DNA of 64,000 nucleotides from positions 1,264 to 65,263 of the forward strand of contig JBHLKC010000001.1 in NCBI GenBank assembly GCA_048887065.1. The letters run 5' to 3'. A program made the translations under genes and the position numbers. The notes under the pieces were generated by a model. That model did not search any database. It saw nothing but the letters and a program-made list of their open reading frames with translations, and was not told where the DNA came from. Within the stretch, counting starts at the first letter, position 1, and each line of letters starts with the position of its first letter. Source of the DNA: Candidatus Hodarchaeota archaeon (GTDB taxonomy: Archaea; Asgardarchaeota; Heimdallarchaeia; Hodarchaeales; Hodarchaeaceae). This document shows positions 8,881 through 59,361 of this stretch, piece by piece.

Positions 8881-9282
8881 TCAATTAGTTATTACTTTCT
8901 TTAAAAATTCTGTATATCTACTTGAATCAAAAGGATAAGATGGATTAAGCTTGAATTTTTCCTTTTTATGCATTATTTCTAATGCTGGTGTTCTCAGAAT
9001 TCTTTTTAACAACAAATATCTTATCTTTTTCGCTATTCCTGTAATATCTTTGACCTCTAAAGGGATTCCATGTTTTTCACAATGATTCCTTGTATTGATA
9101 ATAACTTTTTGCATTTCAGTGGAATAAAAATTCTTTTCTAAATTGATTGCTGCCATTGAAATTCTTTCATTAACCACAAGTGAATGGCAATGTCCCTTTT
9201 TACATCCTCTTTCTATTACTACTGGTCTTGACACTTTACTAACATACAGCGTTACCTGAATGTTACTTTTATCTTCTGACAT
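8881..9282 (-). CDS. hypothetical Cys/His-containing protein
   Basis: 133-aa ORF with a CKKGHCH cluster. No family recognised. Confidence 0.3.
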   Translation of the reverse strand: MSEDKSNIQVTLYVSKVSRPVVIERGCKKGHCHSLVVNERISMAAINLEKNFYSTEMQKVIINTRNHCEKHGIPLEVKDITGIAKKIRYLLLKRILRTPALEIMHKKEKFKLNPSYPFDSSRYTEFLKKVITN

Positions 9283-9427
9283 GGATCAAAACTCCTCTCA
9301 ACGTTCCGATTTTTCGGAACGTTCCCATTATTAAAAAAGTTAACTTTTTCTGCAAAAAAAAATATGAATCTAATTCTTTCTTTAAAACACCATTTATAGG
9401 TTTTAACCTTAAAATATGTTGATAAAA

Positions 9428-10027
9428 TTATTCAGAACCAGTAAAACCAAAAAAGAAACTCCCATAAGTTTTCTCATAGGCCTCATTGTCAATAGTATCT
9501 CTTAGTTGATTTCCAAACTTAGTCTCAAAAAAATTCTTGAAGTCAGATAAAAACTGTTGTTCTCTATCCATTGAATAAAATAAAACTCCAATATCCCTTC
9601 GAAGCTGTTTTCTCTTTTCTGCTTTCAATATACCTTCCTTTATTTCCTCATTGGTCAAATTCAGGGTTTTTCTGATTTCTATCTTTAGTAAGGCTAAAAT
9701 AATAAATAGATTAAACAATTTTAATTCCCTAGGCTTTTCCATGATTTCTTGTGGATTTTTTAGTATTTTCTCGAATTCTTTGCTAATGCGATATTTTTTC
9801 AGGTTCAAAGATTGTTTCACAGTAATTACTTCGGCTTCAATCAACCCAGAGTTTAGCATCTCTTTAAGATTGTAATACATTTTGGTTTTCTTGAATTTAA
9901 GAGTGTTGATGAGCTCCTTGGCAGTAATTCCTGGTTTTAGAAAGATTTCAGACCAAATCGCAGTCCTAGTTGGATTCGTCATCAATTCCTCGAACACCCT
10001 CATCTCGAAAGACAATTCATACACCAA
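9428..10027 (-). CDS. putative winged-helix transcriptional regulator
   Basis: N-terminal HTH-like segment (ITAKELINTLKFKKTKMYYNLKEMLNSGLIE). 199 aa. Confidence 0.4.
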   Translation of the reverse strand: MVYELSFEMRVFEELMTNPTRTAIWSEIFLKPGITAKELINTLKFKKTKMYYNLKEMLNSGLIEAEVITVKQSLNLKKYRISKEFEKILKNPQEIMEKPRELKLFNLFIILALLKIEIRKTLNLTNEEIKEGILKAEKRKQLRRDIGVLFYSMDREQQFLSDFKNFFETKFGNQLRDTIDNEAYEKTYGSFFFGFTGSE

Positions 10028-10249
10028 GTTTAGAAGTGTCTCGCAGATACTTAATAATTTTTGATATTTACTTGGTATCTTAATGCTATAAAATCAGAGT
10101 TTTTCTTTTTCGTACTCTTTTGTAAGATTAGAAAGGTATCTAAAGTTCCTATAGACATAGAACATGTCAAAGAACTTCTCCCTTTCAATTTCTGAATATC
10201 TTCAGTACCAATAGAAGTATTTATAACAGGTGATTTAGAAAATATATGG

Positions 10250-22426: not shown

Positions 22427-23158
22427 TTAATTGTCTCGTATATAACGAGCTGGAGAACCCGCATAAACAGTATTAGAGGGGATTTTTTGATTCTTTTTGA
22501 CAACAGAATTGACTCCAATGATAACATTGTCTCCAATCTCGGCTCCAGGCGCAATTATCGTATTTCCCCCGATTGTCACATTTTTACCGATTTTAACTGG
22601 AGAGATTGTTAGATATCGGGATTCGGTAACATGTGATGCAATGATAGCCCTGAGTCCAATAAATGAATTATCTCCAATAGTTACCAAATACGAATCAATC
22701 ATTGTTCCTGCTGACAGATAAACGTTCTTACCAACTTTCAATCCATATAAGCGTAAAAATTTTCCCAACAACAGCGAATACAAATGTGGAATAAAACTAA
22801 AAGCCTTTAGCATGCTCTTAAAGATGCTTGGGGACACTATAGCAACACTATATAGCATTGCTTCTTTAGAATTGTGATGAAATCTCCCAGGCGTGAGTTT
22901 AGGAAGAAAAATTCGGCATACTACTTGCGAATGTAAAATACCATAAATAATCGTGGAGATTAAGTAGAGAATTGGTAATGATAATGCAATTAGTAACCAG
23001 AGTGCAAAATCATGGACGGTAAGCATTAATAAATAAACAAAGAAAAATTCTGGAATGAAAACTGCCATAAAGAGAATTGCAGTAAAGAAAAAATAAAGAG
23101 GTAAGCGGAGATTAACTGGAACTATCAAATCCAAACTTCCCAGGTGAATAACGTTCAT
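22427..23158 (-). CDS. membrane-anchored hexapeptide-repeat (left-handed beta-helix) acyl/acetyltransferase-like protein
   Basis: 243 aa. Two N-terminal TM helices, then C-terminal hexapeptide repeats (IGDNSFIG, IGKNVTIGGNTIIAPGAEIGDNVIIGVNSVV). Starts 19 nt downstream of the roadblock gene. Confidence 0.6.
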   Translation of the reverse strand: MNVIHLGSLDLIVPVNLRLPLYFFFTAILFMAVFIPEFFFVYLLMLTVHDFALWLLIALSLPILYLISTIIYGILHSQVVCRIFLPKLTPGRFHHNSKEAMLYSVAIVSPSIFKSMLKAFSFIPHLYSLLLGKFLRLYGLKVGKNVYLSAGTMIDSYLVTIGDNSFIGLRAIIASHVTESRYLTISPVKIGKNVTIGGNTIIAPGAEIGDNVIIGVNSVVKKNQKIPSNTVYAGSPARYIRDN

Positions 23159-23177: not shown

Positions 23178-23981
23178 TTATTGCGGGATTACTTCTCTGA
23201 TTTGTTTAACAGTTTCGGAAATTCTCACAACGAGAGATTCAAGTCGTGCTGTTGGGTTACCATCCACACAAAGTAATAATCCTTCACTAATTTTATAGGC
23301 CACTAAATTAGTAGCTTCGGATGAGACCACCAAATATCTTAAATTACGCATATAAGTGCTGACATTTAAGATTCGAATAGCCCCAGCCATTTGCAGATGA
23401 TCCATATTGTACTCAATAAGGATGTCTCCTGTAAAAGAAATTATCATAGCTCCCCTTACAACTCCTTCTTCACTTTTTACGAGTTTTCTTAAGTAAAATT
23501 TAGCAGCATTTTTTGAAGAAGTAAGCATTTCTCTTGTCTCACCACTGAAGATTTCATCTACCTCTTCAGTGAAATTGGAAAACATATCTGTGTCTACAAT
23601 ATCAATCTTCTTGATATCATCGCTATATTTGGATAAAAATAAACTCGCAATTGTTGTTAGTTTGAATTGCATATCCATAGTACTGACAAGGGGAGATGCT
23701 AAGATTGCAAATACCAGTTCATCTCTTTCAATGAATGAAAAGCGGTTATCGGTCATATCCACCACTCGAAGGTCGCTTAAAGATGATTTCGCAAACGAAA
23801 ACATTGCAGTTAAGAAAGCAACCACAAGATGGGCATCAGGTGTTTTTCCTTCATTGGTCTCATAAGATCGCGTGAATAAGGTCTCACCTGATTCTTTTCG
23901 GAAAATAAAAAAAGCCTTTATTTGTTTAAATAATTCTAATGTCAACATTCTTCCCTCATAAGAATTCCTTCGCCTTAACAT
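23178..23981 (-). CDS. tandem roadblock/LC7/longin-like domain protein (MglB/Lamtor-like GTPase partner)
   Basis: 267 aa in two ~120-aa halves, each with a beta-beta-alpha-beta-beta-alpha pattern. The second half (VRGAMIISFTGDILIEYN ... EGLLLCVDGNPTARLESLVVRISE) matches the classic roadblock signature. Overlaps the GTPase gene by 26 nt. Confidence 0.6.
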   Translation of the reverse strand: MLRRRNSYEGRMLTLELFKQIKAFFIFRKESGETLFTRSYETNEGKTPDAHLVVAFLTAMFSFAKSSLSDLRVVDMTDNRFSFIERDELVFAILASPLVSTMDMQFKLTTIASLFLSKYSDDIKKIDIVDTDMFSNFTEEVDEIFSGETREMLTSSKNAAKFYLRKLVKSEEGVVRGAMIISFTGDILIEYNMDHLQMAGAIRILNVSTYMRNLRYLVVSSEATNLVAYKISEGLLLCVDGNPTARLESLVVRISETVKQIREVIPQ

Positions 23982-24540
23982 TCAGGATGTTGATAGTTAA
24001 TGTCCGAAAGGCTTCGTTAACATTTTCTCCAGTCTTTGCAGAAGTTTCGATATAATCGATAGCATGCATATGTTGTTGGACTTCTTTGGCTCTTTTTTTC
24101 GTAACTTCCCTTTTCAAATCGGATTTATTACCAATGAGGAATGATAGAGACTTTGGAGATACTCGCAATACTTGACTTTGCCATCGTTCCTGGATTGCAT
24201 TAAGTGTCTCTTTGCGTGTTAAATCAAAAACATAGAAAGCTCCTGATGCTCCCTTTAAGTATAAATGGGAATACGAGACATGTCTCGCTTGACCAGCAAT
24301 ATCCCAAACCTGAAGTGAAACATTTCGGAGGATGTCGTTATTATCAATGAATTTAACCTTCTTCGTCAAAAAATCCACTCCCAAACTCATACTATATTCC
24401 TCCTTAAATTTATTTTCAATGAATCTTAATATTAAAGACGTTTTTCCAACCATGCCATCTCCAAGAAGAAGAACTTTTAATACATGCTTATATTCTGTTT
24501 GTGATTTAACCAAACCCATATCTCCACGGATTGAACTCAT
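23956..24540 (-). CDS. Ras-superfamily small GTPase (Rab-like)
   Basis: G1 GDGMVGKTS, switch I SLGVDF (Rab TIGVDF-like), G3 WDIAGQ, G4 GNKSD, G5 ETSAK. 194 aa. Confidence 0.85.
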   Translation of the reverse strand: MSSIRGDMGLVKSQTEYKHVLKVLLLGDGMVGKTSLILRFIENKFKEEYSMSLGVDFLTKKVKFIDNNDILRNVSLQVWDIAGQARHVSYSHLYLKGASGAFYVFDLTRKETLNAIQERWQSQVLRVSPKSLSFLIGNKSDLKREVTKKRAKEVQQHMHAIDYIETSAKTGENVNEAFRTLTINILNVKAKEFL

Positions 24541-24952: not shown

Positions 24953-25261
24953 GTGTTAGCAAATAAAAAGTATATTTTTTCACTTAGCATATTAAGATTA
25001 AAAAAAAGCTTGTTGGTGGATTTAAGTTTGATCGATTCAGAATCCTCCGGAACAGAAAAATGGATAGAGATTGTTTTGAAAGAATTGAAAAGCGCTAGCA
25101 CAGTTGAAATTATTGATCGGGTAAGCATATTTAACCAAGATTGCGCTGATCGGATTCCAATGGTTCTAACCCAGATGAGGATGGATGGTAAAATAACTTA
25201 TAAGGTAGTTTCTTCTAAAAATGGGGAAAAGAAACAGATAGTGTGGGAATTGATCGATTGA
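24953..25261 (+). CDS. hypothetical small protein (possible winged-helix)
   Basis: 102-aa ORF between divergent operons. The C-terminal half has a weak wHTH-like pattern. The N-terminal 25 aa may not be translated. Confidence 0.25.
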   Translation: MLANKKYIFSLSILRLKKSLLVDLSLIDSESSGTEKWIEIVLKELKSASTVEIIDRVSIFNQDCADRIPMVLTQMRMDGKITYKVVSSKNGEKKQIVWELID

Positions 25262-25274
25262 ACAAATCTCATTG

Positions 25275-26957
25275 CTAAATAGGCATTTCTTCTCCTTCAT
25301 AGGGAATATATACGTTTGTACTTTTTGCTAGAGAATATTTTTTTGAGATTACTTCATTTCCTAAATGAATTAGGGCAAGTCGCTTAGTTAAAGGCGCTAA
25401 TTTCATTGCTTGATGAAAATTTAAATGAATATCAAGTTTAGTATCAAAAAAATTACACTCAATTATGGACAAATCTGTGTTTTTAACCAAGAGAATTAAA
25501 TTATCTGTCCATCCAGTATCTCCACTGTATGCAATCGTGATTTTATTTGTTTCTAATCTATAACCTTGTGATTCAGGATTATGTTGCATGTCAATCGCTT
25601 TAATGGTAATCCCATTTAATTCTAAAGGTTGTTGGGGGGAAATTACTTTATAATGACATGCAAAAGGTTTTTTCTCATTTGCAATATTTTCGTACAAAGC
25701 GTGATATAGAGATTTGACCTTATCCTCAATATTATGAGGACCTATTATACTTAAGGGTTTTTTTCTATTTTGCTGTATGCTCGCTTCAAGAAGTATAAAG
25801 GGTAAACCTGCAAAATGATCCCCATGAAAATGTGATATCAATATAAGATCTATATCATCTGTTTTTCTTCCTGCTTTTTTCAATGCAGGTAAAGTATGTG
25901 GTCCACAATCTAACAGAATTCCATACTGATCTAGCTCAATAAAAACTCCCGCACTCTTATAAGCACTTGATGCAAACGCATCACCTGTTCCTAAAAATAA
26001 AATATTCGCTTTTGGGGGAGTTTGGGGTAAAATTCTTGTGCCAACATTTTTCCCATTCAGTGCCTCTTCAAATTCTTCAATACCCACAACCCAGCAATTT
26101 ATAAAGCTATTCGCTAATTCTACTAAATTTCTAAGCTTTCCTCCCATAGATTCCGTTACATCGTATTCTTCGATAGATTTTTCATTACTAAATGCTAGCA
26201 GATTATTCTTAGAGTCGTAACAAATAAAATCATGATTATTTACTTCAATTTTTGAAATAAATTGAGCGTCATCATATTTAGGATCCTTGGTATAAATTCC
26301 TGTTTTTTTACCTTTAACATCTGTTAAGAAAATCGCATCAGATATTTGAGTATGAGTGAAACGCCTCATTAAGGCCGAAGGTACAATGTCTCCTGAGAAT
26401 ACCTTCCACCCAGTAGGAGTATGACCAACATCTCCGTAGAAAATGGGCACAGCATTTGTATTGTTAATTATCTGTTCAAGCACGGAAAGATCTTGAGTAA
26501 TGGCTTCCTTTGATGAAATTTGATCTGTAGGGGCTCCGCTCATTATTTGATGAGAAGAAATTGAAATAGCATTTATCCCATGCCTTATAGCAGATGCAAC
26601 TACAAATTCGTTTTGAATATTTACAGCAAGTTTAACAATCGAATAACCTTGTTGGATATTTGAATATTTTTCTAGAAGATGTAAAACCAAAGAGTGGCCA
26701 ATGGAACCTGCTCCATGGACCAGGATTATTTTTCTTTGGGGATTTTTGCTCAAAAAAGAAGATAATGTCGAGAAAACATCATTTAGTTTTTGAAAGTTCA
26801 TTAACTTCGAAATTTTTTCGTTTAAGTCTTTGAGAGATCCATTCCCCTCCATAAAACGATCAATCTCTTTTAAATAATCCTCAATCCCCTCCTTGTTTCT
26901 TTTGTACGTAATTAAACTTCCACCAAGCTTAACGATTAAGACTTGTTTTTTTCTCAT
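25275..26957 (-). CDS. fusion protein: isopentenyl-phosphate-kinase-like amino-acid-kinase domain + metallo-beta-lactamase-fold hydrolase domain
   Basis: N-terminal IPK/FomA-type motifs (LIVKLGGSLIT, LVHGAGSIGH, TDVKGKKTGIYTKDP, ESMGGKL). C-terminal MBL motif ISHFHGDHFAG with downstream His/Asp ligands. 560 aa. Confidence 0.7.
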   Translation of the reverse strand: MRKKQVLIVKLGGSLITYKRNKEGIEDYLKEIDRFMEGNGSLKDLNEKISKLMNFQKLNDVFSTLSSFLSKNPQRKIILVHGAGSIGHSLVLHLLEKYSNIQQGYSIVKLAVNIQNEFVVASAIRHGINAISISSHQIMSGAPTDQISSKEAITQDLSVLEQIINNTNAVPIFYGDVGHTPTGWKVFSGDIVPSALMRRFTHTQISDAIFLTDVKGKKTGIYTKDPKYDDAQFISKIEVNNHDFICYDSKNNLLAFSNEKSIEEYDVTESMGGKLRNLVELANSFINCWVVGIEEFEEALNGKNVGTRILPQTPPKANILFLGTGDAFASSAYKSAGVFIELDQYGILLDCGPHTLPALKKAGRKTDDIDLILISHFHGDHFAGLPFILLEASIQQNRKKPLSIIGPHNIEDKVKSLYHALYENIANEKKPFACHYKVISPQQPLELNGITIKAIDMQHNPESQGYRLETNKITIAYSGDTGWTDNLILLVKNTDLSIIECNFFDTKLDIHLNFHQAMKLAPLTKRLALIHLGNEVISKKYSLAKSTNVYIPYEGEEMPI

Positions 26958-27256: not shown

Positions 27257-28903
27257 ATGAAACTAACTCTAAGAGTTTTCATTATTTTGCCTACGAGCAT
27301 TGTATGGTTAATAACAGCTCTCTTTTTACTTGTTTATGGATTTGAACTTATTCTTTTTGTGTTTCCAAGTAATGTGTATGATTTAGTTTTGAATCCAGGA
27401 ATTTTCTTATTATTCATAACAGCATGTTTAGCTACATTAGCATTATATACCACTGGCCATGCTATTGACAAGAATACGAAATTATTGAAGCCCCTAACAA
27501 AAATATCGCTTTTCATGAGCGGGGTTTGCTTACTATTGATAGTAATTGGTACCGAATATCAAATATTTTTGTTTCTTGGACTCCCTGGTCTTGGAATTTC
27601 TTTGGGTATTCTAGCTACAACATCTGGTGTTGTCTTTGGTTACTATTCTGAAATTGATAATAGGGGTCGTCTTTATGCTTTAGCAATCATTCTTAGCGCT
27701 CTCTTTTCTATCTTTTCTATTATTCTGTTAAACTCTCTTAATATTGATTTTCGGATTCATTTATTCCTTATTGGGCTCATATCAATTTTATCGGCAATTG
27801 TTATTCATTATATTTCTCGTTCAATTGAACCATGGAGGAATGATCCCTACCCGACCTCTATTATTAGAATATTTGACAGAAGATCTGTTAAAGCCTATTT
27901 AGCTGCCCATTTTTTCATATATTTAATGATTGGTATCGCTTTTTCCACTATTTCTCGATTGGGACTAGCAGAGGATTTGACAATTTTCTTAGATTTATTT
28001 ATAATAGAGAAATTTAGCATAGATCAGAATACATTTTTCTGGCTTTTGGTATTCATTGGTGATCTGTTCTTCATTTGGCCAATGGCTCTACTTAGTGATA
28101 AAATAGGTAGAAAGACAATTATGGTATTAGGTTGTTATGGGATAGTTTTCGCTGCTATTATTGTTGGATTAGGTACTGACATTCTTTCATATTATTTATC
28201 TGCATTCATTTTGGGCGGAAGTTTTGCTACTATGCACCCTTCAATCGATAGCGCAGTATGGGCTGATTTGAGTCCCCTTGATTCTTTAGGACGTTATTAT
28301 GCTTTAGGATTTATTTCTCTTCTTCAAGGGATTGGAGTTGGTTTAGCTATAGGCCTTCTTTTTTCTTCATTTATCGGAAGTGATATGGCTACAATTAGCT
28401 ATGTTCTTATTGGACTTGCGATCCTGGGCATGTTTTTTCTCTTCTTTGTTGTAGATTCCTTTATGCCCATTGATATTTTTCTTTTGTTATTATCCAGAAG
28501 TGGAATGTTAATTTTTAGTCATGATTTCCAGCGAGGTGAAGAAATATCAGACAAAGACTTAACACTTGTGACTGGAGCTTTATCGGCAATCAATACAATT
28601 TTTACCGAGACTATTCATGAACAAGAAGCTGCTTTAGATTTAGTTAGACACGGTAACGTGTTCATTGTGCAATCCAAAGTTTCTACGGAGAAAGGAGAAC
28701 TATTAGCGACAGTTTTTGCCAATAAAAATGATCCTGAGATTTATCGAGGTGTACGCTTGTTCCTAACAAAATTCGCTCACACATTTGAAGACGAACTTCA
28801 GACTTGGGTTGGCCGAAGTGATGCTTTCTTAAAAGCGATTGATATAGCTGAGGATGTATTTGGTCCTCTGATTCCTTCAAAAACATTTTCAACCCCCTCT
28901 TAA
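27257..28903 (+). CDS. polytopic MFS-like membrane protein fused to a C-terminal cytoplasmic roadblock/longin-like domain
   Basis: 548 aa. About 12 TM helices with MFS motif-A-like LSDKIGRKTIMVLG. The C-terminal ~130 aa (MLIFSHDFQRG..LTLVTGALSAINTIF..LDLVRHGNVFIVQSKV..ELLATVFANKNDP..RLFLTKFAHTFEDEL) align with the N-terminal domain of the 23178-23981 protein. Confidence 0.6.
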   Translation: MKLTLRVFIILPTSIVWLITALFLLVYGFELILFVFPSNVYDLVLNPGIFLLFITACLATLALYTTGHAIDKNTKLLKPLTKISLFMSGVCLLLIVIGTEYQIFLFLGLPGLGISLGILATTSGVVFGYYSEIDNRGRLYALAIILSALFSIFSIILLNSLNIDFRIHLFLIGLISILSAIVIHYISRSIEPWRNDPYPTSIIRIFDRRSVKAYLAAHFFIYLMIGIAFSTISRLGLAEDLTIFLDLFIIEKFSIDQNTFFWLLVFIGDLFFIWPMALLSDKIGRKTIMVLGCYGIVFAAIIVGLGTDILSYYLSAFILGGSFATMHPSIDSAVWADLSPLDSLGRYYALGFISLLQGIGVGLAIGLLFSSFIGSDMATISYVLIGLAILGMFFLFFVVDSFMPIDIFLLLLSRSGMLIFSHDFQRGEEISDKDLTLVTGALSAINTIFTETIHEQEAALDLVRHGNVFIVQSKVSTEKGELLATVFANKNDPEIYRGVRLFLTKFAHTFEDELQTWVGRSDAFLKAIDIAEDVFGPLIPSKTFSTPS

Positions 28904-29056
28904 TCATTAAAAATCACTCTTGTTTTGAACCTAAGGTTTATACCTTAACTTGGGATTTCGATACTGCTTTTTCATTGAACCAATCTAAAAATGGAATGGA
29001 GAAGTTTTTTTAATCTAATCAAACTCTGATTAAGAAAACAAAAGGAATGTCTAAAA

Positions 29057-30724
29057 GTGAGACAAAAGGACTATTTAATCATCTTATTGCCAAATATTTT
29101 CTCTTGGTTGTTAGCTTCTCTTCTTCTTCTAATTTACTCATTTGATATAATAGAATTTGTTGAATCGTCACCCAAAAACCCTTTTGCAGGATGGGGAGTT
29201 CTCATCTTGGGTATTATTCTTATTATCGTGATCTTAGTATTGTACTTTACTGGTGTTCTTCTCGATCAAAAACCTGTTTATCTAAGAACTTTAACCTTTT
29301 TAGGAGTACTGGGGAGTTCTATCATGGTTATATTATTTGTTGTATTGATTAAAACTATCTTTGTGGTAATTACATTGGCAGGTTTAGCCTTATTCTTCGG
29401 TCTATTGTTAACAAGTAGTGGGACTTTATTTGCAGGATTAACAGATATGTGGAAGCGAGGGAGAACATACTCCTATATAATATTCATATTTATCTTTTTC
29501 TCCATGATTAGCATCCTTTTGGGAGGTGTGATTTCTCATCAAGCTCAGCAATCTGATCCACAAAGGGTGAATCCATTAAGCTATAGTTGGATGAGTATTC
29601 TACCTGGAATCGGGGTTTTTGGCGTTTTCATTGCTATAATATTCCTTTTTGTAACACGAAACATGGGAGTTCCATGGGTTCCAGATGCATGGCCTACAAA
29701 ATTCAAGAAAATTGTTGAACGTAGATCTGTTCGTGCATACTTAATTACTCACTTTTTTATTTACTTGATGCTTGGTATTGTAATTGCAGCATTTCCCAAA
29801 ATCGGAGAAACTTTTGAGATTTTGAAGGATTTCTCATTTACGATAAATATTCCGAATTTAGGGATGTTTGATCCCCCTCTTGATAAATTATGGTGGTTTA
29901 TTGTTTTAGTTGGTGATTTAATAGGTATAATTCCAGCTGGCTATTATGCTGATCGTAATGGTAGGAAAAATTCGATAATAACTGCAATCTATGGAATAGT
30001 TTTTGCAGCATTAATATTTGGTCTTGAGAAAAGCCCTGAGAGTTTTTTTATCGCTGCTTTTGTAATTGGTGTATCTTTCGCTTTACTCCACTCCACTCTT
30101 GACTCTTCCTTATGGGCTGACTTATCTCCTCGTGATGGTTTAGGCCGTTATTATGCTTTAGGCTTCATTTCGCTTGCATTAGGCCTAGGAGTAGGATCAG
30201 GGTTAGGTCATTGGGTACTTAATAATGTCGAAATCATTACTTACATTTTAATCATATTGGCGATCATTTCTGCTTTTCCTCTCTTTTGGGTATCTGATAG
30301 TTATAAGCCCCTAGATTTTTCATTGTTGTTAGTTATCGAAGAAGGTGGATTACCAATATTCGATTATTCATTCCATAAGAAATTGGATGTATCTGTTGAA
30401 TTAACTTTATTATCAGGAGCTTTGACTGCAGTTAGCTCATTTATGAGTGAAACACTAAAAGAAAAAGGAGAATTAAATCTCGTAAGACATGGAAGTCATT
30501 TTATCTTAACTGATAGAGTTGGTGGTATCGCAGCTGCGGTTTTTAGTAATAAACAGGATCCAGAACTTCGGAAATCTCTGCGTGAATTTTTAGAACTTTT
30601 TTGTATTAAATTTTCTAATGAGCTCAAAACTTGGAATGGAGCACGAACTGTATTTGATGATGCTGTTGAACTAGCAGAGGAAGTATTCGGACATCTTGCT
30701 CCATCTACCAACCTTGAGGATTAA
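29057..30724 (+). CDS. paralog of 27257-28903: MFS-like membrane protein with C-terminal roadblock/longin-like domain
   Basis: 555 aa with the same architecture. Motif A YADRNGRKNSIITA, shared WADLSPxDxLGRYYALGFISL segment, C-terminal LPIFDYSFHKK..LTLLSGALTAVSSF..LNLVRHGSHFILTDRV..IAAAVFSNKQDP..LREFLELFCIKFSNEL. Confidence 0.6.
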   Translation: MRQKDYLIILLPNIFSWLLASLLLLIYSFDIIEFVESSPKNPFAGWGVLILGIILIIVILVLYFTGVLLDQKPVYLRTLTFLGVLGSSIMVILFVVLIKTIFVVITLAGLALFFGLLLTSSGTLFAGLTDMWKRGRTYSYIIFIFIFFSMISILLGGVISHQAQQSDPQRVNPLSYSWMSILPGIGVFGVFIAIIFLFVTRNMGVPWVPDAWPTKFKKIVERRSVRAYLITHFFIYLMLGIVIAAFPKIGETFEILKDFSFTINIPNLGMFDPPLDKLWWFIVLVGDLIGIIPAGYYADRNGRKNSIITAIYGIVFAALIFGLEKSPESFFIAAFVIGVSFALLHSTLDSSLWADLSPRDGLGRYYALGFISLALGLGVGSGLGHWVLNNVEIITYILIILAIISAFPLFWVSDSYKPLDFSLLLVIEEGGLPIFDYSFHKKLDVSVELTLLSGALTAVSSFMSETLKEKGELNLVRHGSHFILTDRVGGIAAAVFSNKQDPELRKSLREFLELFCIKFSNELKTWNGARTVFDDAVELAEEVFGHLAPSTNLED

Positions 30725-30795: not shown

Positions 30796-31476
30796 GTGAA
30801 AATTTTGGTTTTATGGATAGTTTTTCAGCTTATATTGCTAGCAGCAGTGTTGTTTGTTGGTGTATACTATTTCGAATTTTTTTATAATGGCTTTGCGATG
30901 AAAAATTTGTTCATATCATTATTTTTCTCAATTTCTTTGACATTATTCACATTTCTATTCTTTCTAACTTGTTTACATAAATTGGCAAGAATGCTGATGA
31001 AAAATGAGGAAGGGATTCTAACTGGAAGGGATAGAGTACTGTGGGGGATAACCATGACAAGTGCTGATACAGCATATTATTTAGTCAATAAATTGTTTAT
31101 AAATCAAATTTTTCCAGCGTTGTTCTACAAGTTATTTGGAGCGAAGTTTGGTAAAAGAGTCGCGATTTTTACTAGATTGTGGGACGTTGATTTAATGGAA
31201 ATTGGAGACGACACGTCAGTGGGTACAAACTGCATTATAGGAGCCCATGCTATTTCACAAGGGGAATTATTCCGCAAACGGATAAAAATCGGCAAGAATT
31301 GTACTATTGGAGCTGGAACAATTATATTGCCTGGTGTAACTATAGAAGATAATGTGATTGTAGCAAGTAATTCTGTTATACCATCCAATCGTGTTTTAAG
31401 AGCAAACTCAATTTACGCAGGAAGCCCAGTGAAACGGATAAAAGATTGGAATGGTGAAAGCGTGTGGGAATCTTAA
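30796..31476 (+). CDS. membrane-anchored hexapeptide-repeat (left-handed beta-helix) transferase-like protein, paralog of 22427-23158
   Basis: 226 aa. Two N-terminal TM helices, then IGDDTSVGTNCIIGAHA ... IGKNCTIGAGTIILPGVTIEDNVIVASNSVI, with a C-terminal SIYAGSPVKRIKD tail matching TVYAGSPARYIRD of the paralog. Confidence 0.6.
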   Translation: MKILVLWIVFQLILLAAVLFVGVYYFEFFYNGFAMKNLFISLFFSISLTLFTFLFFLTCLHKLARMLMKNEEGILTGRDRVLWGITMTSADTAYYLVNKLFINQIFPALFYKLFGAKFGKRVAIFTRLWDVDLMEIGDDTSVGTNCIIGAHAISQGELFRKRIKIGKNCTIGAGTIILPGVTIEDNVIVASNSVIPSNRVLRANSIYAGSPVKRIKDWNGESVWES

Positions 31477-48173: not shown

Positions 48174-49192
48174 TTTTTTTCTCCTATCTTTATGAAAAGG
48201 GTTTTGTTTGTATAATCATAATGGGAACAGTGATTGATTTCAAAAAAAATGAGAGGCGCTATTGAAATATTGGTTAAACAATGTTTCCGCTCATAATTAT
48301 ATAATTTGATTTTAATGAGAGGAAATATCCAAGGCATGCGAATGAACTCGCGACTTTATTATTATGATTATCCGTGTAAATAAAGAATAAATACATATAT
48401 AATAATTTTCCTAAAAAAAAGCATAAAATCAAAAAAGTTGACAATGAATACATAATTTAACTACTTTCTGAATTTAACTAACTTTTATCTACTGAAAATA
48501 ATAAATATTGAGAAATAAGAAACCTAAACGTTTTTGCTCTTGTTTCTTTAAAACATTTGAAGAGGATTTTACTCGTTGAAATTCAATCCTTTTTGAAGGC
48601 CATATTCGATTTAAATAGTAGAAAATGATTTTCACTAGCGATAAAAGCGAATTATGTCTCAATCATGTCCGATCTTATTGCTAGCAGATTAACCACAAGA
48701 AAGTTATTATCTCTTGATGGAAAAATAATAATTAGAAAAGTAAATTTCAATTACATCCGAATTCATAGAGGCTTAATACTATAACAATTAACTATTGTAA
48801 ATTAGTTTAACTAGATTCGAAAAACGGATTATATATTATCTCTTTTTGTAAAATAAAGTTCGCATCCGTTTTTTAGGCTATTATTATCAAAATGGTTTTT
48901 ATTGGATTTTTTCCAGCTCTATAAGTCTCTTCTGTATTAATGCAGATTTTCTGAAGTTTTTATAATAGATACATTAAAAAAATAAAAAACTATAGTTATA
49001 TTTCATACATTTAATAATACCATAATGTTTTTTTATCTGAAATTATACCTATACTTGAGTATAGTTTCTAATACTATATTTATCGCAAAGTTTGCGAAAT
49101 TCGAAATAACATACGATATGTCGGTTAAAGTACCGATAGTTAACTTCTTACCAAGAAGTAGCGAAGAAAATCTCATATACGGCGGTATATTG

Positions 49193-50512
49193 ATGAATCA
49201 AGAAGAAAAATTAGTCAGCCAGAGTAAGTGGAGTGGCAAGCGAGTTGTGTTACTCTACTGGTTCTCAATCGCTTTCTTGGGAACAGCTGCTGCTGCTGGT
49301 CTAGGTGCTGGTGTTTTAAATCCTAAATATTCCTTCGATGCAGTACAAATGGACCATAGCAGTATAACTGATCCCTGGGGACCACAAGATTGTACTGGTG
49401 CTTATTGTCACAATGACTCGGTTGACACTTGGAATGAAACTGGACATGCTCATGCTGCTGTTCCTTTCACTAATACTACTGGTGATTTTGTGGAAATAGC
49501 AGGTTCGAGGAATGTTACACGTGCCCAATTTGACTCAAGTTGTGGGCATTGTATGGCAACAGGATGGGACAATTCCACTGGAACTGTCACCTACTGGGAT
49601 TTTGGAGTAACTTGTGCAGCCTGTCACGAGCCAGGTGTAATAAATTATACTGCAGCAAGTTGTGGGAACTGCCACACTGGAAGTCACCACCCTCAATATC
49701 CAGATTACCAAAAGAGTGCACATTCTCAATCAATGGATGATTTGCTGGCAAGCGATCACGCGGGTGACCACTGTCTTCATTGCATGTCTGGACAAGGGCT
49801 ATATGCAGAAGAAGAGTTATCGCTTGATGATACCTTCTTAACTTCGATTAACTGTGCTACCTGTCACGATCCCCATGATGCGACAAATTCAACTCAACTA
49901 CGAGAAGCAGATGTGACCGATCTCTGTGGTGAGTGTCATAGTGGAGGTCGCCATGGATCTCTAGATATGCTAACCGATACAGAAACTACAAGTGCTCATG
50001 GATACATTGATTGTACCTCGTGCCATGGTTACCAGCTTGACAGTTACGGTGAAGCAGGTGTGAATCATACTTGGGCTGTGACAACGGATGGATGCTCAAC
50101 ATGTCATTCAAACCCCACCGAACGATGGACTCTGATGGAGGATATCCAAGGCGATATCACTGCACTAATGGACGAATACGAGACTCTATATGAGAATGTC
50201 ACTAAAAAAGTCGATGAAGCCAACGAAACAGCAGGCGTAGATGAAGCCTTGATCAATGATTCTTTCGATTTAATCGCTGAAGCTGAAGCACTTTTCATTG
50301 CAGTTGATGGTGACGGAAGCGAAGGTTTCCACAATCCTGACTTAGCTGAAGCAAAACTCAAATTGGCTCTAACAAAGCTGGATGAGGCTTATGCTAAAGC
50401 TGAAGAGGCTGTAGCTGGTGGTGGTGACGTTCCTGGATTTGAAGTATTCACAGTCTTAGCAGCGATTAGTGTTCTAGCTGTAGGAGTTCTTCTCTACAAG
50501 AAAAGACGCTAA
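49193..50512 (+). CDS. surface-anchored multiheme c-type cytochrome with PGF-CTERM archaeal sorting signal
   Basis: Six canonical CxxCH motifs (CAACH, CGNCH, CATCH, CGECH, CTSCH, CSTCH), one CX4CH (CTGAYCH) and two CxxCM. N-terminal signal/TM. More than 10 N-x-S/T sequons. Ala/Glu-rich linker, then VPGFEVFTVLAAISVLAVGVLLYKKRR (PGF motif + TM + basic tail). The track ORF starts at 49025, but the ATG at 49193 precedes the signal peptide. Confidence 0.8.
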   Translation: MNQEEKLVSQSKWSGKRVVLLYWFSIAFLGTAAAAGLGAGVLNPKYSFDAVQMDHSSITDPWGPQDCTGAYCHNDSVDTWNETGHAHAAVPFTNTTGDFVEIAGSRNVTRAQFDSSCGHCMATGWDNSTGTVTYWDFGVTCAACHEPGVINYTAASCGNCHTGSHHPQYPDYQKSAHSQSMDDLLASDHAGDHCLHCMSGQGLYAEEELSLDDTFLTSINCATCHDPHDATNSTQLREADVTDLCGECHSGGRHGSLDMLTDTETTSAHGYIDCTSCHGYQLDSYGEAGVNHTWAVTTDGCSTCHSNPTERWTLMEDIQGDITALMDEYETLYENVTKKVDEANETAGVDEALINDSFDLIAEAEALFIAVDGDGSEGFHNPDLAEAKLKLALTKLDEAYAKAEEAVAGGGDVPGFEVFTVLAAISVLAVGVLLYKKRR

Positions 50513-57934: not shown

Positions 57935-58002
57935 TATTTCATTTATTTGAGAATTCAATCTCAATTTAGGCTCTTTTTCTTAAAGTACCAGGTGATCTTC
58001 TA

Positions 58003-59361
58003 GTGACTCCAGATTCAGTTCCATCTAACTCTAGTAATACAAAAGAATCAGGTTCAACAGCGAATACTCGCGAGAAAGTTCCTATTTGGGGGACAAGTAT
58101 TGGGTGGGCTGCTGGAAGATCTTCTATTTTTGCTTTTCTGTCTTATTGGGGAGTAGTTCTAGGCGCTTCTCCTTTAGAACAATCCATTCTAACTTCGGTG
58201 AGAAATCTAGGATCTAATATTTTCCAATCAGTATGGGGTTGGTTAGCAGATCTCAAAGGACGGAAACTCGTCATCGTTATTGGGCTTACTACTCTGACGA
58301 TAACAACGTTTCTTTCCCCTTTTGCAAACAATCCTACTGAGCTTGTTCTAATTTCGTTAGTCATGACAACTGTTGGATTTAGTATTATTCCAGCATGGAA
58401 TGCTTTTTTGGGTGATTACTCATCTGAGCGTACTCGGGCTTCTTTTATAGGCAGAATTAACTCTGTAGGTACTCTAACTTCAATTGCAGTAATACTAATT
58501 GTCGGAATTTTGATGGATTTAAGCCCATTTCCGTTCCCTCGTGAGTCTATAGACTATGTTTTAAGTAAACCCGCTTTCTTTATTCCTTTTGTATTTGGAG
58601 CTTTGCTTTTTGGAATGACGATTGTTATTTCTTTCTTTCTAGTTGAAAAGTATGATGTAAAAGAAAGAATGGCAATTGACGAGGAACTCCGACCATCTTG
58701 GAGAACGCTAATTAATAGAAACAAGCCATTTCAACGACTCTTACCTTTAGATAGTTTTTTCAAATTTGCTATGAGCACTGCATGGCCAATATTCCCTTTT
58801 GTAACTCTTCGTGTTGCTGATTCCTGGTTTATGGTTTCACTTATGTGGGTGGTTTTTAACTTACCGAGAGGAATTGGTCAAAACTTTGGGGGAGCTCTAG
58901 CAGATAAATACAATAAGAAAATCATCATCATTTTGTCTCGACTTGGATATGCTGTTGTCCCATTAGGATATGCTTTAGGTTTAATTACTGGAAATGTATG
59001 GTTCTTAGTCTTAGTCAATATTCCTGGAGGTTTGGCATTCGGTGCCGAAGATACTGCTATTGCTACTTATTCTTTAGATTGTTCTACTGAAGAAACAAAA
59101 GCAAGATATTATTCAATGTTACTGACTGCTGAAGGAATTAGTGCTTTTATTGGTTCACTCTTTTCAGGTTTCGTTATGGATGTGTGGTTACGTATCTCTG
59201 GAATTAATTATGATAGTTCAGACTTTAATTTTGTTTTGTTTGTCATGTTAATGATAATTGCCTCTTTAAGATTAGTATCAGCTAGTTTACACAAATTCAT
59301 CTATAAAAATCCATTGGATTTTGATCTAGAGCAATTAATTTCGTTAAAAGAAAGTTCTTAA
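58003..59361 (+). CDS. MFS transporter
   Basis: 12 TM helices, motif A GWLADLKGRKLVIVIG. Confidence 0.75.
   Translation: MTPDSVPSNSSNTKESGSTANTREKVPIWGTSIGWAAGRSSIFAFLSYWGVVLGASPLEQSILTSVRNLGSNIFQSVWGWLADLKGRKLVIVIGLTTLTITTFLSPFANNPTELVLISLVMTTVGFSIIPAWNAFLGDYSSERTRASFIGRINSVGTLTSIAVILIVGILMDLSPFPFPRESIDYVLSKPAFFIPFVFGALLFGMTIVISFFLVEKYDVKERMAIDEELRPSWRTLINRNKPFQRLLPLDSFFKFAMSTAWPIFPFVTLRVADSWFMVSLMWVVFNLPRGIGQNFGGALADKYNKKIIIILSRLGYAVVPLGYALGLITGNVWFLVLVNIPGGLAFGAEDTAIATYSLDCSTEETKARYYSMLLTAEGISAFIGSLFSGFVMDVWLRISGINYDSSDFNFVLFVMLMIIASLRLVSASLHKFIYKNPLDFDLEQLISLKESS

Follow-up and report, generated by a model that had tools for sequence, protein, structure and literature searches.

Two tandem genes, W1 and W2, lie close to an operon encoding a small GTPase in the 64-kb stretch of DNA that was analyzed as a whole (the window). 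The features of this locus are collected in Table 1. The host of W1 and W2 is an Asgard archaeon (Hodarchaeales).

Table 1. Features of the W1/W2 locus, with positions in the window
Feature	Position	Strand	Evidence
LbH_A: TM and hexapeptide-repeat protein, 3′ end of the GTPase/longin operon	22427..23158	-	36% identity to LbH_B, E 4e-27
C-terminal half of the 256-aa GTPase-adjacent protein, putatively roadblock-like	23178..23540	-	JGI name of orthologues; a-b-b-a-b-b-b-a pattern
Longin domain, aa ~1-136, of the 256-aa GTPase-adjacent protein	23541..23948	-	hhalign E 1.6e-6; weak Fuz_longin_1 in 19/23 orthologues
Rab-like small GTPase, 194 aa, 7 bp upstream of the longin protein, operon	23956..24540	-	Pfam Ras E 1.5e-42
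W1: 548-aa MFS-longin protein, upstream tandem paralogue	27257..28903	+	ORF; Pfam MFS_1 E 1e-7; 36% identity to W2
W1 motif A core DKIGRK, aa 281-286, TM8-TM9 loop	28097..28114	+	direct sequence reading
W1 linker and C-terminal longin domain, aa ~401-545	28457..28891	+	tail HMM E 1.5e-48; 40% identity to W2 tail
W2: 555-aa MFS-longin protein, downstream tandem paralogue, GTG start	29057..30724	+	ORF; orthologue; full-length AF2 model
W2 12-TM MFS body, aa 1-411	29057..30289	+	AF2 helices; Foldseek; Pfam MFS_1 53 bits
W2 motif A GYYADRNGRKN, aa 295-305, TM8-TM9 cytoplasmic loop	29939..29971	+	D299, G302, R303, K304 invariant, n=36 family members
W2 TM10-TM11 cytoplasmic loop STLDSSLWADLSPRDGLGRYY	30092..30154	+	highest conservation in W2
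W2 C-terminal longin domain, aa 421-547, ~9 aa past TM12	30317..30697	+	
LbH_B: TM and hexapeptide-repeat protein, 71 bp downstream of W2	30796..31476	+	Pfam Hexapep

Architecture of W1 and W2

W1 and W2 align over their full length (BLASTP, 36% identity, E 2e-86). As tandem paralogues they belong to an MFS subfamily specific to the Hodarchaeales, of which at least three paralogue types are kept full length across about 20 species; the genome scan used full-length alignment and thus covers the W1/W2-type family only. P0063 represents a fourth paralogue type. The GTG start of W2 is also found in an 88%-identical orthologue of 555 aa.

The Pfam MFS_1 model (PF07690; TC 2.A.1) covers only the second half of each protein (residues 229-417 of W2 and 218-399 of W1), with 53.3 bits for W2, above the gathering cut-off of 33.4, and 31.6 bits for W1, slightly below it. 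The AlphaFold2 model of W2 (pLDDT 88.9, pTM 0.88) shows 6+6 TM helices arranged in two six-helix bundles, as is typical of the MFS fold, and then a folded domain comprising residues 421-547. According to this model, TM1-6 span residues 3-36, 47-71, 73-96, 100-128, 131-166, and 177-199, and TM7-12 residues 223-252, 275-301, 303-324, 327-345, 359-386, and 391-411. A Foldseek search placed the model among the solved MFS transporters SV2A, PfHT1, YajR, and VMAT2 (E ~1e-9, TMt 0.6-0.78). When the N-terminal half of W2 was compared with the C-terminal half by BLASTP, no internal repeat was detectable.

The signature known as motif A (G-x3-D-R/K-x-G-R-R/K) is present as a perfect copy in the TM8-9 loop of W2 (GYYADRNGRK) and as DKIGRK in W1, and the TM2-3 loop carries a degenerate version (GVLLDQKP). 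Across 36 family sequences the motif in the TM10-11 loop is invariant alongside motif A of the TM8-9 loop, and the invariant charged residues are mostly found in the loops and in the linker, with few in the TM helices. The mean frequency of the major residue is 0.89-0.95 in the TM10-11 loop, 0.80 in the linker, 0.72 in the longin domain, and 0.58-0.68 in TM1-6. Within the MFS body, conservation peaks on the cytoplasmic face. Lysine and arginine residues number 17 in the inside loops vs 5 in the outside loops. By the positive-inside rule and the position of motif A, the C-terminal domain (the tail) lies in the cytoplasm, and the whole-chain pTM of 0.88 suggests that the MFS body and the tail adopt a defined orientation in the predicted structure.

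A first-pass annotation of the locus, made from the sequence, had described tandem paralogous MFS-like proteins of about 12 TM helices with a GRK-type motif A in the second half, each ending in a soluble domain of about 130 aa displayed on the cytoplasmic face. All of this agrees with our analysis: the open reading frames, their identity, the modelled helices and MFS fold of W2, the position of motif A, the charge distribution, and a tail that is neither disordered nor of low complexity. We regard the architecture, a 12-helix MFS body with a C-terminal longin domain, as near-certain and infer that transport or sensing of a solute has been retained.

Fold and distribution of the tail

When modelled alone (pLDDT 83), the W2 tail displays the secondary structure elements E7-14, E19-24, H35-52, E61-64, E67-74, E77-83, H88-110, and H116-130 (DSSP). 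This is the longin topology b1-b2-a1-b3-b4-b5-a2-a3 without an N-terminal helix, and the same order is seen in the full-length model. The nearest solved structural neighbours are partner-binding longin domains. The tail had originally been called roadblock-like. This assignment was rejected, as the a-b-b-a-b-b-b(-a) topology with its N-terminal helix is not found and the Robl_LC7 profile (PF03259) matches neither W1 nor W2. A distant member of the tail family, P0145, has a sub-threshold Robl_LC7 match (E 1.5e-4). A GAF/PAS sensor domain was likewise discarded, there being no GAF/PAS domains among the structural neighbours, and a disordered tail does not agree with the confident predicted fold.

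On the sequence level the tail belongs to no curated family in Pfam or NCBIfam, even at E<=10, and differs from the curated longin families in that no Pfam longin model matches it. PDB sequence searches were likewise without a significant match, whether the query was the tail itself or its profile. The sole link to a curated longin family is indirect and runs via hhalign to the longin protein beside the GTPase, whose orthologues match Fuz_longin_1 below the cut-off.

We compared the tail with this neighbouring protein (open reading frame 23178-23981), whose start at position 23948 is supported by the length of its orthologues, 256 aa. BLASTP aligned the W2 tail with its N-terminal domain over 120 aa (E 2e-4); the W1 tail alone had no significant BLASTP match to this protein. 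Profile-profile comparison gave E 1.5e-5 and, against the N-terminal domain alone, E 1.6e-6 (hhalign, probability 90%, score 42), and 30 column-shuffled controls scored at most 17.9. With the tail HMM, only W2, W1, and the 256-aa protein (E 8e-6) were retrieved from all open reading frames of the window, the next best having E 0.13. Judged from these alignments, the tail and the N-terminal domain of the neighbour are genuine distant homologues on the family level, not specific twins: their identity is about 22%, and each is far more similar to many other membrane-tethered longin domains of Asgard archaea than to its counterpart. Of the match proposed in the first-pass annotation, the homology and the register of the alignment therefore stand, and the specific pairing does not.

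The tail family is large and comprises 3,762 clusters at E<=1e-3. It became visible by an exhaustive search of representatives; a word-indexed search gave mostly gene fragments. Its named members are, among those sampled, all from Asgard archaea. Of 144 close representatives, 128 have the domain at the C-terminus and 118 have at least one TM helix ahead of it, and in most cases its start is no more than 30 aa away from the last TM helix. The membrane bodies carrying it are many and unrelated, with 1 to 14 TM helices, and include other, unrelated MFS lineages. The domain is also found as small soluble proteins and fused to KaiC-type ATPases, and fusions of related Asgard longin domains to two-component modules have been reported (bioRxiv 10.1101/2020.10.19.343400). 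Taking both kinds of fusion together, the longin domain is not tied to GTPases. The tail is a general membrane-proximal module of a large family without a name.

The GTPase neighbourhood

The Rab-like GTPase, 2.7 kb away from W1/W2, is the only GTPase within the 64-kb window. It is a single-domain protein with Rab7 (6.5e-30), Thorarchaeota Rab, Sec4, and Rab1 as best PDB matches, and its Pfam match to Ras far exceeds that to Gtr1_RagA (E 8e-8). The orthologues of the 256-aa protein next to it are named 'Roadblock/LC7/MglB family' by JGI. The C-terminal half of this protein has no Pfam or PDB sequence match, and its hhalign comparison with the tail was not significant (E 0.45). The position of LbH_A is conserved in several genomes. 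LbH_B follows W2 in most orthologous loci, overlaps it in some, and is probably part of the same transcription unit.

The first-pass annotation had proposed that W1 and W2 could recruit or regulate the nearby Rab-like GTPase or dimerize with its soluble roadblock partner, and had suggested a genome-context survey for co-occurrence with small GTPases. The two sets of genes do not share an operon: they run in divergent directions, with a small open reading frame and an AA-kinase/MBL gene in between. Nearly all Hodarchaeales main loci with a covered flank have this arrangement; the exception is L008, a complete genome with the W1/W2 pair away from the GTPase operon. The conserved block, however, also holds peptidase, aminotransferase, and TPR genes, so that the synteny may reflect relatedness rather than function. 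Beside the third paralogue (16 loci) and five other MFS-longin genes, neither a GTPase nor a longin gene recurs consistently, and next to other family members such neighbours are absent or at chance level. The link between W1/W2 and the GTPase rests on the analogy of folds and on synteny within one order.

A W1-type orthologue forms a tandem with W2 in 17 of 23 main loci; five are without W1, and one (L005) begins at W2. Since several genomes keep W2 without W1, an obligate W1-W2 heterodimer is unlikely.

Possible roles of the tail and comparison with known systems

Solved longin domains pair with a second longin domain. Longin dimers serve as GTPase platforms in TRAPP, Mon1-Ccz1, DENN, FLCN-FNIP, GATOR1, and SRX-SRbeta (PMC10933270). 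We tentatively favour, at somewhat under even chances, the view that W1 and W2 are transporters or transceptors with a built-in longin platform for a partner. The tail would pair with a second longin domain, be it in a W1-W2 heterodimer, in a homodimer, or with the soluble longin protein beside the GTPase, and the two domains together would make up a platform, fixed to the membrane, on which a cytoplasmic partner could dock. Most plausibly this partner would be an Asgard small GTPase lacking a lipid anchor or its longin/roadblock regulator. The conformational state of the transporter could be relayed via the conserved TM10-11 loop, motif A, and the short linker.

A possible, if rather unlikely, alternative is that the tail only gates or dimerizes its own transporter and has neither a GTPase nor any other outside partner. 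Accessory cytoplasmic domains are known from other carriers, for example the YAM domain of YajR and the STAS domain of SulP/SLC26, and YajR (3wdo), itself an MFS protein that ends in a soluble domain, ranks among the top structural matches. The very short linker, the conservation peaks in the cytoplasmic loops and the linker, and the absence of a conserved GTPase neighbour beyond the one syntenic block would fit such autoregulation, as would the high whole-chain pTM, which suggests a tail docked on the MFS body. The occurrence of the domain at the end of unrelated bodies with 1 to 14 TM helices, in soluble proteins, and in KaiC fusions is, however, better explained by a portable module, and the nearest solved folds are domains that bind partners.

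It is improbable that the MFS body has lost transport and serves as a mere anchor or ligand sensor for the longin domain. The degenerate motif A in the TM2-3 loop, the low conservation of the first six helices, the location of the invariant charges in loops and linker rather than in TM helices, the half-length Pfam match (for W1 under the gathering score), and the relatives with the same tail on simple anchors of 1-2 TM helices point in this direction. Against it stand the complete 12-helix MFS fold, confidently modelled and resembling active transporters, the at least three full-length paralogue types, and the invariance of the TM8-9 motif A and of the TM10-11 loop motif, both of which reportedly function in MFS conformational cycling according to the work on motif A of YajR. 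Very improbable is a tail that binds a metabolite in the manner of GAF/PAS-like domains and regulates transport allosterically, an idea that could draw on the proposed relatedness of longin domains to GAF/PAS domains (De Franceschi 2014, cited in PMC4917890) and on the Asgard longin fusions to two-component modules (bioRxiv 10.1101/2020.10.19.343400). That the tail is disordered or of low complexity and aligns fortuitously with the protein beside the GTPase, as the empty Pfam, NCBIfam, and PDB sequence searches and the missing BLASTP match of the W1 tail might suggest, has already been refuted.

How Asgard small GTPases find membranes is an open question because the eukaryotic prenylation machinery is lacking, and the roles of the many Asgard longin and roadblock proteins are open as well (PMC4917890, PMC10933270). 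A longin domain built permanently into the cytoplasmic side of transporters and numerous other polytopic proteins is a concrete candidate for a membrane receptor of such systems. It has been suggested that, among the Asgard orders, the Hodarchaeales are closest to eukaryotes, and in these genomes W1/W2 lie beside a Rab7-like GTPase and the Mon1-like longin protein with which it is paired. A tail serving solely to regulate its transporter would still constitute a novel class of accessory domain for MFS proteins. It is overlooked entirely by current annotations such as 'MFS transporter' and 'hypothetical protein'.

More doubtful is an extension of the platform reading, in which the juxtamembrane C-terminal longin domain would be the general Asgard means of bringing GTPases without lipid anchors and their regulators to membranes. 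In the Hodarchaeales, W1 and W2 would then be solute-responsive transceptors anchoring the neighbouring Mon1/Ccz1-like longin-roadblock protein and the Rab7-like GTPase, a single-polypeptide forerunner of the SLC38A9-Ragulator-Rag and PQLC2-C9orf72 couplings, by which eukaryotes connect lysosomal transporters with GTPase regulators. SLC38A9-Ragulator-Rag and PQLC2-C9orf72/SMCR8/WDR41 are eukaryotic systems in which transporters recruit roadblock or longin GTPase regulators. The likeness would consist in a solute carrier whose cytoplasmic face bears or recruits a longin/roadblock platform, which could couple nutrient status to a GTPase. The carrier folds differ, however, being LeuT-type in SLC38A9, PQ-loop in PQLC2, and MFS in W1/W2, and the eukaryotic platforms are separate complexes on a loop or a disordered tail, which in the amino-acid carrier SLC38A9 is N-terminal, while that of W1/W2 is a folded C-terminal fusion. 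Moreover, the GTPases of the SLC38A9 module belong to the Rag family (heterodimeric, with a G domain and a C-terminal roadblock domain), whereas the neighbour here is Rab-like, and a Ragulator-type set is absent at the W1/W2 locus. The SLC38A9-Ragulator-Rag arrangement named in the first-pass annotation is only an analogy, not a system to which W1 and W2 belong.

In eukaryotes, TRAPP Bet5/Trs23, Mon1-Ccz1, and the related FLCN-FNIP, GATOR1, and SRX-SRbeta form complexes that are soluble or peripheral, in contrast to W1/W2 with a longin domain covalently fixed about 9 residues past TM12 of a transporter. In the longin SNAREs and phytolongins (VAMP7, Sec22, Ykt6) an N-terminal longin domain and a SNARE motif are combined with a single C-terminal tail anchor; W1 and W2 have the reversed order, a polytopic membrane part, and no SNARE motif. 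The described Asgard longin and roadblock proteins include GTPase-longin, TRAPPC3-longin, NPRL2-like longin with two-component domains, and the Loki Roadblock-Longin protein (PDB 8yqg). In the literature, the asCOG supplementary tables aside, we found neither fusions of Asgard longins to transporters or other polytopic membrane proteins nor a juxtamembrane C-terminal subclass. The first-pass remark that no archaeal equivalent has been described holds in so far as no paper on an MFS-longin fusion or a membrane-anchored Asgard longin was found. A similar domain layout is offered by E. coli YajR (PDB 3wdo), which also has a 12-TM MFS body with a prominent motif A and a small folded cytoplasmic C-terminal domain. 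Its sequence identity to the W2 model is 14% (Foldseek), and its YAM domain, about 65 aa long, has a ferredoxin-like and not a longin fold.

Architecture of the tandem carrier genes

The adjacent genes W1 and W2 were found exactly where the first-pass annotation had placed them and they are tandem paralogues, as it had claimed, with 36% identity along the whole length (E 2e-86). The G+C content of the window is about 34%, and MAGs labelled Hodarchaeota or Hermodarchaeota carry identical or near-identical proteins, which marks the source as an Asgard archaeon of the Hodarchaeales type.

Features of the window, with position, strand and characteristics
Feature	Position	Strand	Characteristics
LbH_A	22427-23158	-	TM and hexapeptide-repeat (LbH) protein at the 3′ end of the GTPase/longin operon
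Longin protein	23178-23948	-	256 aa; start at 23948 most likely
Antisense ORF	23569-23865	+	98 aa, within the longin-protein gene; probably a spurious frame
Rab-like GTPase	23956-24540	-	Pfam Ras E 1.5e-42; best PDB matches Rab7, Thorarchaeota Rab, Sec4, Rab1
Small ORF	24953-25261	+	102 aa, no family match; between GTPase operon and kinase/MBL gene
Kinase/MBL fusion	25275-26957	-	560 aa; amino-acid-kinase family and metallo-beta-lactamase
W1	27257-28903	+	548 aa, ATG start
W2	29057-30724	+	555 aa, GTG start
LbH_B	30796-31476	+	TM and hexapeptide-repeat (LbH) protein, 71 bp directly after W2, same strand
Multihaem cytochrome c protein	48986-50509	+	508 aa; Cytochrome_C554, paired CXXCH and Cytochrom_C552 signatures
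Tail-less MFS transporter	57970-59358	+	463 aa; MFS_1 E 3.5e-29

By fold and motif W1 and W2 are members of the MFS. The canonical motif A is located in the TM8-TM9 loop (GYYADRNGRK in W2, DKIGRK in W1), and the TM2-TM3 copy is degenerate. Hence the Pfam model MFS_1 aligns, through its own first half, with the second half of each protein only; at 53 bits W2 passes the cut-off, which W1 narrowly misses (31.6 bits). The full-length model of W2, built from 36 homologues (pLDDT 88.9, pTM 0.88), consists of 6+6 TM helices and a folded domain (residues 421-547) which follows TM12 after only about nine residues. With this model Foldseek retrieved the solved MFS transporters SV2A, PfHT1, YajR and VMAT1/2 (E ~1e-9, target TM-score 0.6-0.78). 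The C-terminus is cytoplasmic, as judged from the position of motif A and the positive-inside rule (17 lysine or arginine residues in the predicted inside loops versus 5 in the outside loops). In contrast, an ordinary MFS transporter encoded in the same window stops after the membrane domain and has no tail.

Pfam, NCBIfam and PDB sequence searches did not recognize the tail. Modelled alone from 38 sequences it folds confidently (pLDDT 83, pTM 0.79), and the element order β-β-α-β-β-β-α-α is the longin topology. The structural-comparison values against solved structures were 13.7 for Trs23, 13.3 for the VAMP7 longin domain, 13.1 for Sec22b, 12.6 for Bet5, 12.2 for delta-COP, 12.0 for both Mon1 and Ccz1, 11.9 for AP-3 sigma, 11.4 for the roadblock protein MglB (104 residues aligned) and 11.0 for the Lokiarchaeal longin domain 8yqg; Foldseek agreed. 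The first-pass annotation had described the tails as roadblock-like. Roadblock/LC7 domains start with a helix, and since the tail opens with two β-strands we reject this assignment; what stands is a folded domain of the roadblock/longin type, neither disordered nor of a foreign fold, for which longin is the correct label. Fold and topology thus identify the modelled tail as a longin domain, although no curated longin sequence model matches it, and the models show W1 and W2 as an MFS fold with a cytoplasmic and tightly tethered longin domain.

Relationship of the tail to other longin proteins

The gene of the longin protein begins 7 bp downstream of the Rab-like GTPase gene. Within the open reading frame 23178-23981 we favoured the internal start because the orthologues (67-100% identity) are 256 aa long. 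The Pfam model Fuz_longin_1, the first longin domain of FUZ, MON1 and HPS1, weakly matches the N-terminal domain of 19 of the 23 orthologues, the best match (E 4e-5) staying under the cut-off. The orthologues bear the JGI names Roadblock/LC7/MglB, and the C-terminal half looks roadblock-like. GTPase and longin protein could be a Rab and its two-domain regulator of the Mon1/Ccz1 type, the roadblock half being putative.

A BLASTP comparison of the W2 tail with the N-terminal domain of this protein gave an E value of 2e-4 over 120 residues; the W1 tail gave nothing significant. In profile-profile comparisons the E value was 1.5e-5 for the longin protein and 1.6e-6 for its N-terminal domain alone (probability 90%, 116 columns), with the same register as the block alignment of the first-pass annotation. 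A chance resemblance is excluded by the score of 42, compared with at most 17.9 in 30 column-shuffled controls, and by the confident fold. When every open reading frame of the window was searched with the tail HMM, the matches were W2, W1 and the longin protein (E 8e-6), followed by the next at 0.13. The resemblance is therefore a true but distant homology, the identity being about 22%. The earlier claim that the tails match the partner of the GTPase therefore holds for homology but not for a specific pairing: an HMM of the partner domain scores many membrane-tethered relatives (e.g., P0159, E 1.5e-9) above W1 and W2, so that the domain of the partner and the tails of the MFS proteins belong side by side in a single large family.

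When 1.84 billion representatives were searched exhaustively with the tail profile, 3,762 clusters (50% identity) matched at E≤1e-3, and 884 of them did so at E≤1e-10. Of 144 close representatives, 128 carry the domain no more than 40 aa from the C-terminus and 118 have at least one hydrophobic helix upstream of it; in most cases no more than about 30 residues separate the last TM helix from the start of the domain. The tail thus belongs to a very large unnamed family of mostly C-terminal, juxtamembrane longin modules. The membrane bodies bearing it are diverse and include 1-2 TM anchors, proteins with some seven TM helices (about 370 aa) and multi-TM proteins of about 715-750 aa. Further MFS transporters with this tail (P0147, P0165, P0228, P0153, P0261, P0251, P0170) have TM parts without detectable relation to W1 and W2. 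Small soluble forms and tandem repeats (P0148 is a soluble tandem form), fusions to KaiC/RecA-like ATPases (P0210, P0205, P0227) and a coiled-coil-rich protein of 2,171 aa with three domain copies (P0168) also occur. All organism-named relatives sampled are Asgard archaea (Loki/Promethearchaeota, Hodarchaeales, Heimdall, Thor, Baldr and Atabeya).

Conservation and possible function

Within the W1/W2 family the conservation, expressed as mean major-residue frequency, is 0.89-0.95 in the cytoplasmic TM10-11 loop, 0.80-0.86 in the linker between TM12 and the longin domain, 0.75-0.81 in the central loop, 0.72-0.80 in the longin domain, 0.68-0.76 in TM7-12 and 0.58-0.68 in TM1-6. Conservation thus peaks on the cytoplasmic side, and the linker and cytoplasmic loops are where the invariant charged residues cluster; accordingly, the tail and the cytoplasmic face are under the strongest selection.

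Judging from solved longin domains, the tail may pair with a second longin domain and so form a docking platform fixed to the membrane. The likeliest client would be a small GTPase or its regulator, and the conformation of the carrier could possibly be passed on via motif A, the TM10-11 loop and the short linker. We propose this mechanism as a whole tentatively, with slightly less than an even chance of being right. The main rival, which we consider rather unlikely, is a purely autoregulatory or oligomerization domain like the YAM domain of the MFS protein YajR. The pattern of constraint fits communication between carrier and longin domain and is compatible with an output to the carrier itself, as this rival would have it, as well as to a partner, as for the docking platform. 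That W1 and W2 are non-transporting anchors or receptors appears improbable, and a ligand sensor still more so.

The first-pass annotation had compared the arrangement with SLC38A9-Ragulator-Rag. Here the carrier has another fold, a Rab-like GTPase takes the neighbouring place and a Ragulator set is absent; the likeness to this system and to PQLC2-C9orf72 is one of function by analogy and not of membership. Longin SNAREs, too, have both a longin domain and a membrane anchor; their order is reversed, however, and they possess a SNARE motif. Previous work has already described expansions of longin and roadblock proteins in Asgard archaea as well as several fusions (PMC10933270; bioRxiv 10.1101/2020.10.19.343400). 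Neither fusions of a transporter to a longin domain nor a class of juxtamembrane C-terminal longin domains turned up in the literature that could be searched, asCOG supplementary tables aside, in line with the earlier statement that no described archaeal equivalent was known. The earlier observation is confirmed and its interpretation partly supported; new is the recurrent domain architecture, whose two folds were already known. With the functional link putative, it offers a concrete and testable hypothesis on how Asgard GTPase systems meet membranes.

Distribution and genomic neighbourhood

Scanning one genome per GTDB species we found 36 loci of the W1/W2 family in about 20 genomes, all of them Hodarchaeales-type MAGs. 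The main locus is strongly syntenic (optional genes in brackets): HEAT protein, M42 peptidase, (wHTH), (LbH_A), longin protein and GTPase on one strand; the small ORF and, on the reverse strand, the kinase/MBL fusion; then (a second M42 peptidase), W1, W2 and LbH_B, followed by aminotransferase and TPR genes. The longin protein adjoins the GTPase in all Hodarchaeales loci where the region is covered. W2 is kept without W1 in five main-locus rows, and in the complete genome of locus L008 the pair lies apart from the GTPase operon. A third paralogue (about 40% identity) occurs elsewhere in 16 loci, with HpaB, Sir2, PhoU and ABC genes among its neighbours and longin or GTPase neighbours not beyond chance; a fourth type also exists (P0063/P0064). 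For five MFS-longin genes of other lineages and one member of the seven-TM type, a small GTPase was seen at a distance of up to 6 kb in only one case. The conserved proximity of W1 and W2 to the GTPase is weak evidence of a link because it is confined to one order and is part of a synteny with unrelated housekeeping genes, not an operon. Missing linkage in turn does not argue strongly against a functional link, since Asgard GTPases are reported not to lie generally in operons with their longin or roadblock genes (PMC10933270).

LbH_A and LbH_B are paralogues (36% identity). Most of the orthologous loci have LbH_B after W2 or overlapping it, and both clusters of the window thus pair a longin gene and a TM-LbH gene. 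The kinase/MBL fusion lies between both clusters in all syntenic loci, and the 102-aa ORF is conserved in every one of them (E 1e-25 to 1e-36). On one metagenomic contig (L044) an actin-family gene (9013-10098, minus strand) lies about 400 bp from a W-type MFS-longin gene (P0140). Genes for the haem-copper oxidase subunits COX1-3 are found near the syntenic block in locus L002 and, together with the multihaem cytochrome c protein of the window, point to a respiratory capacity in these Hodarchaeales genomes.
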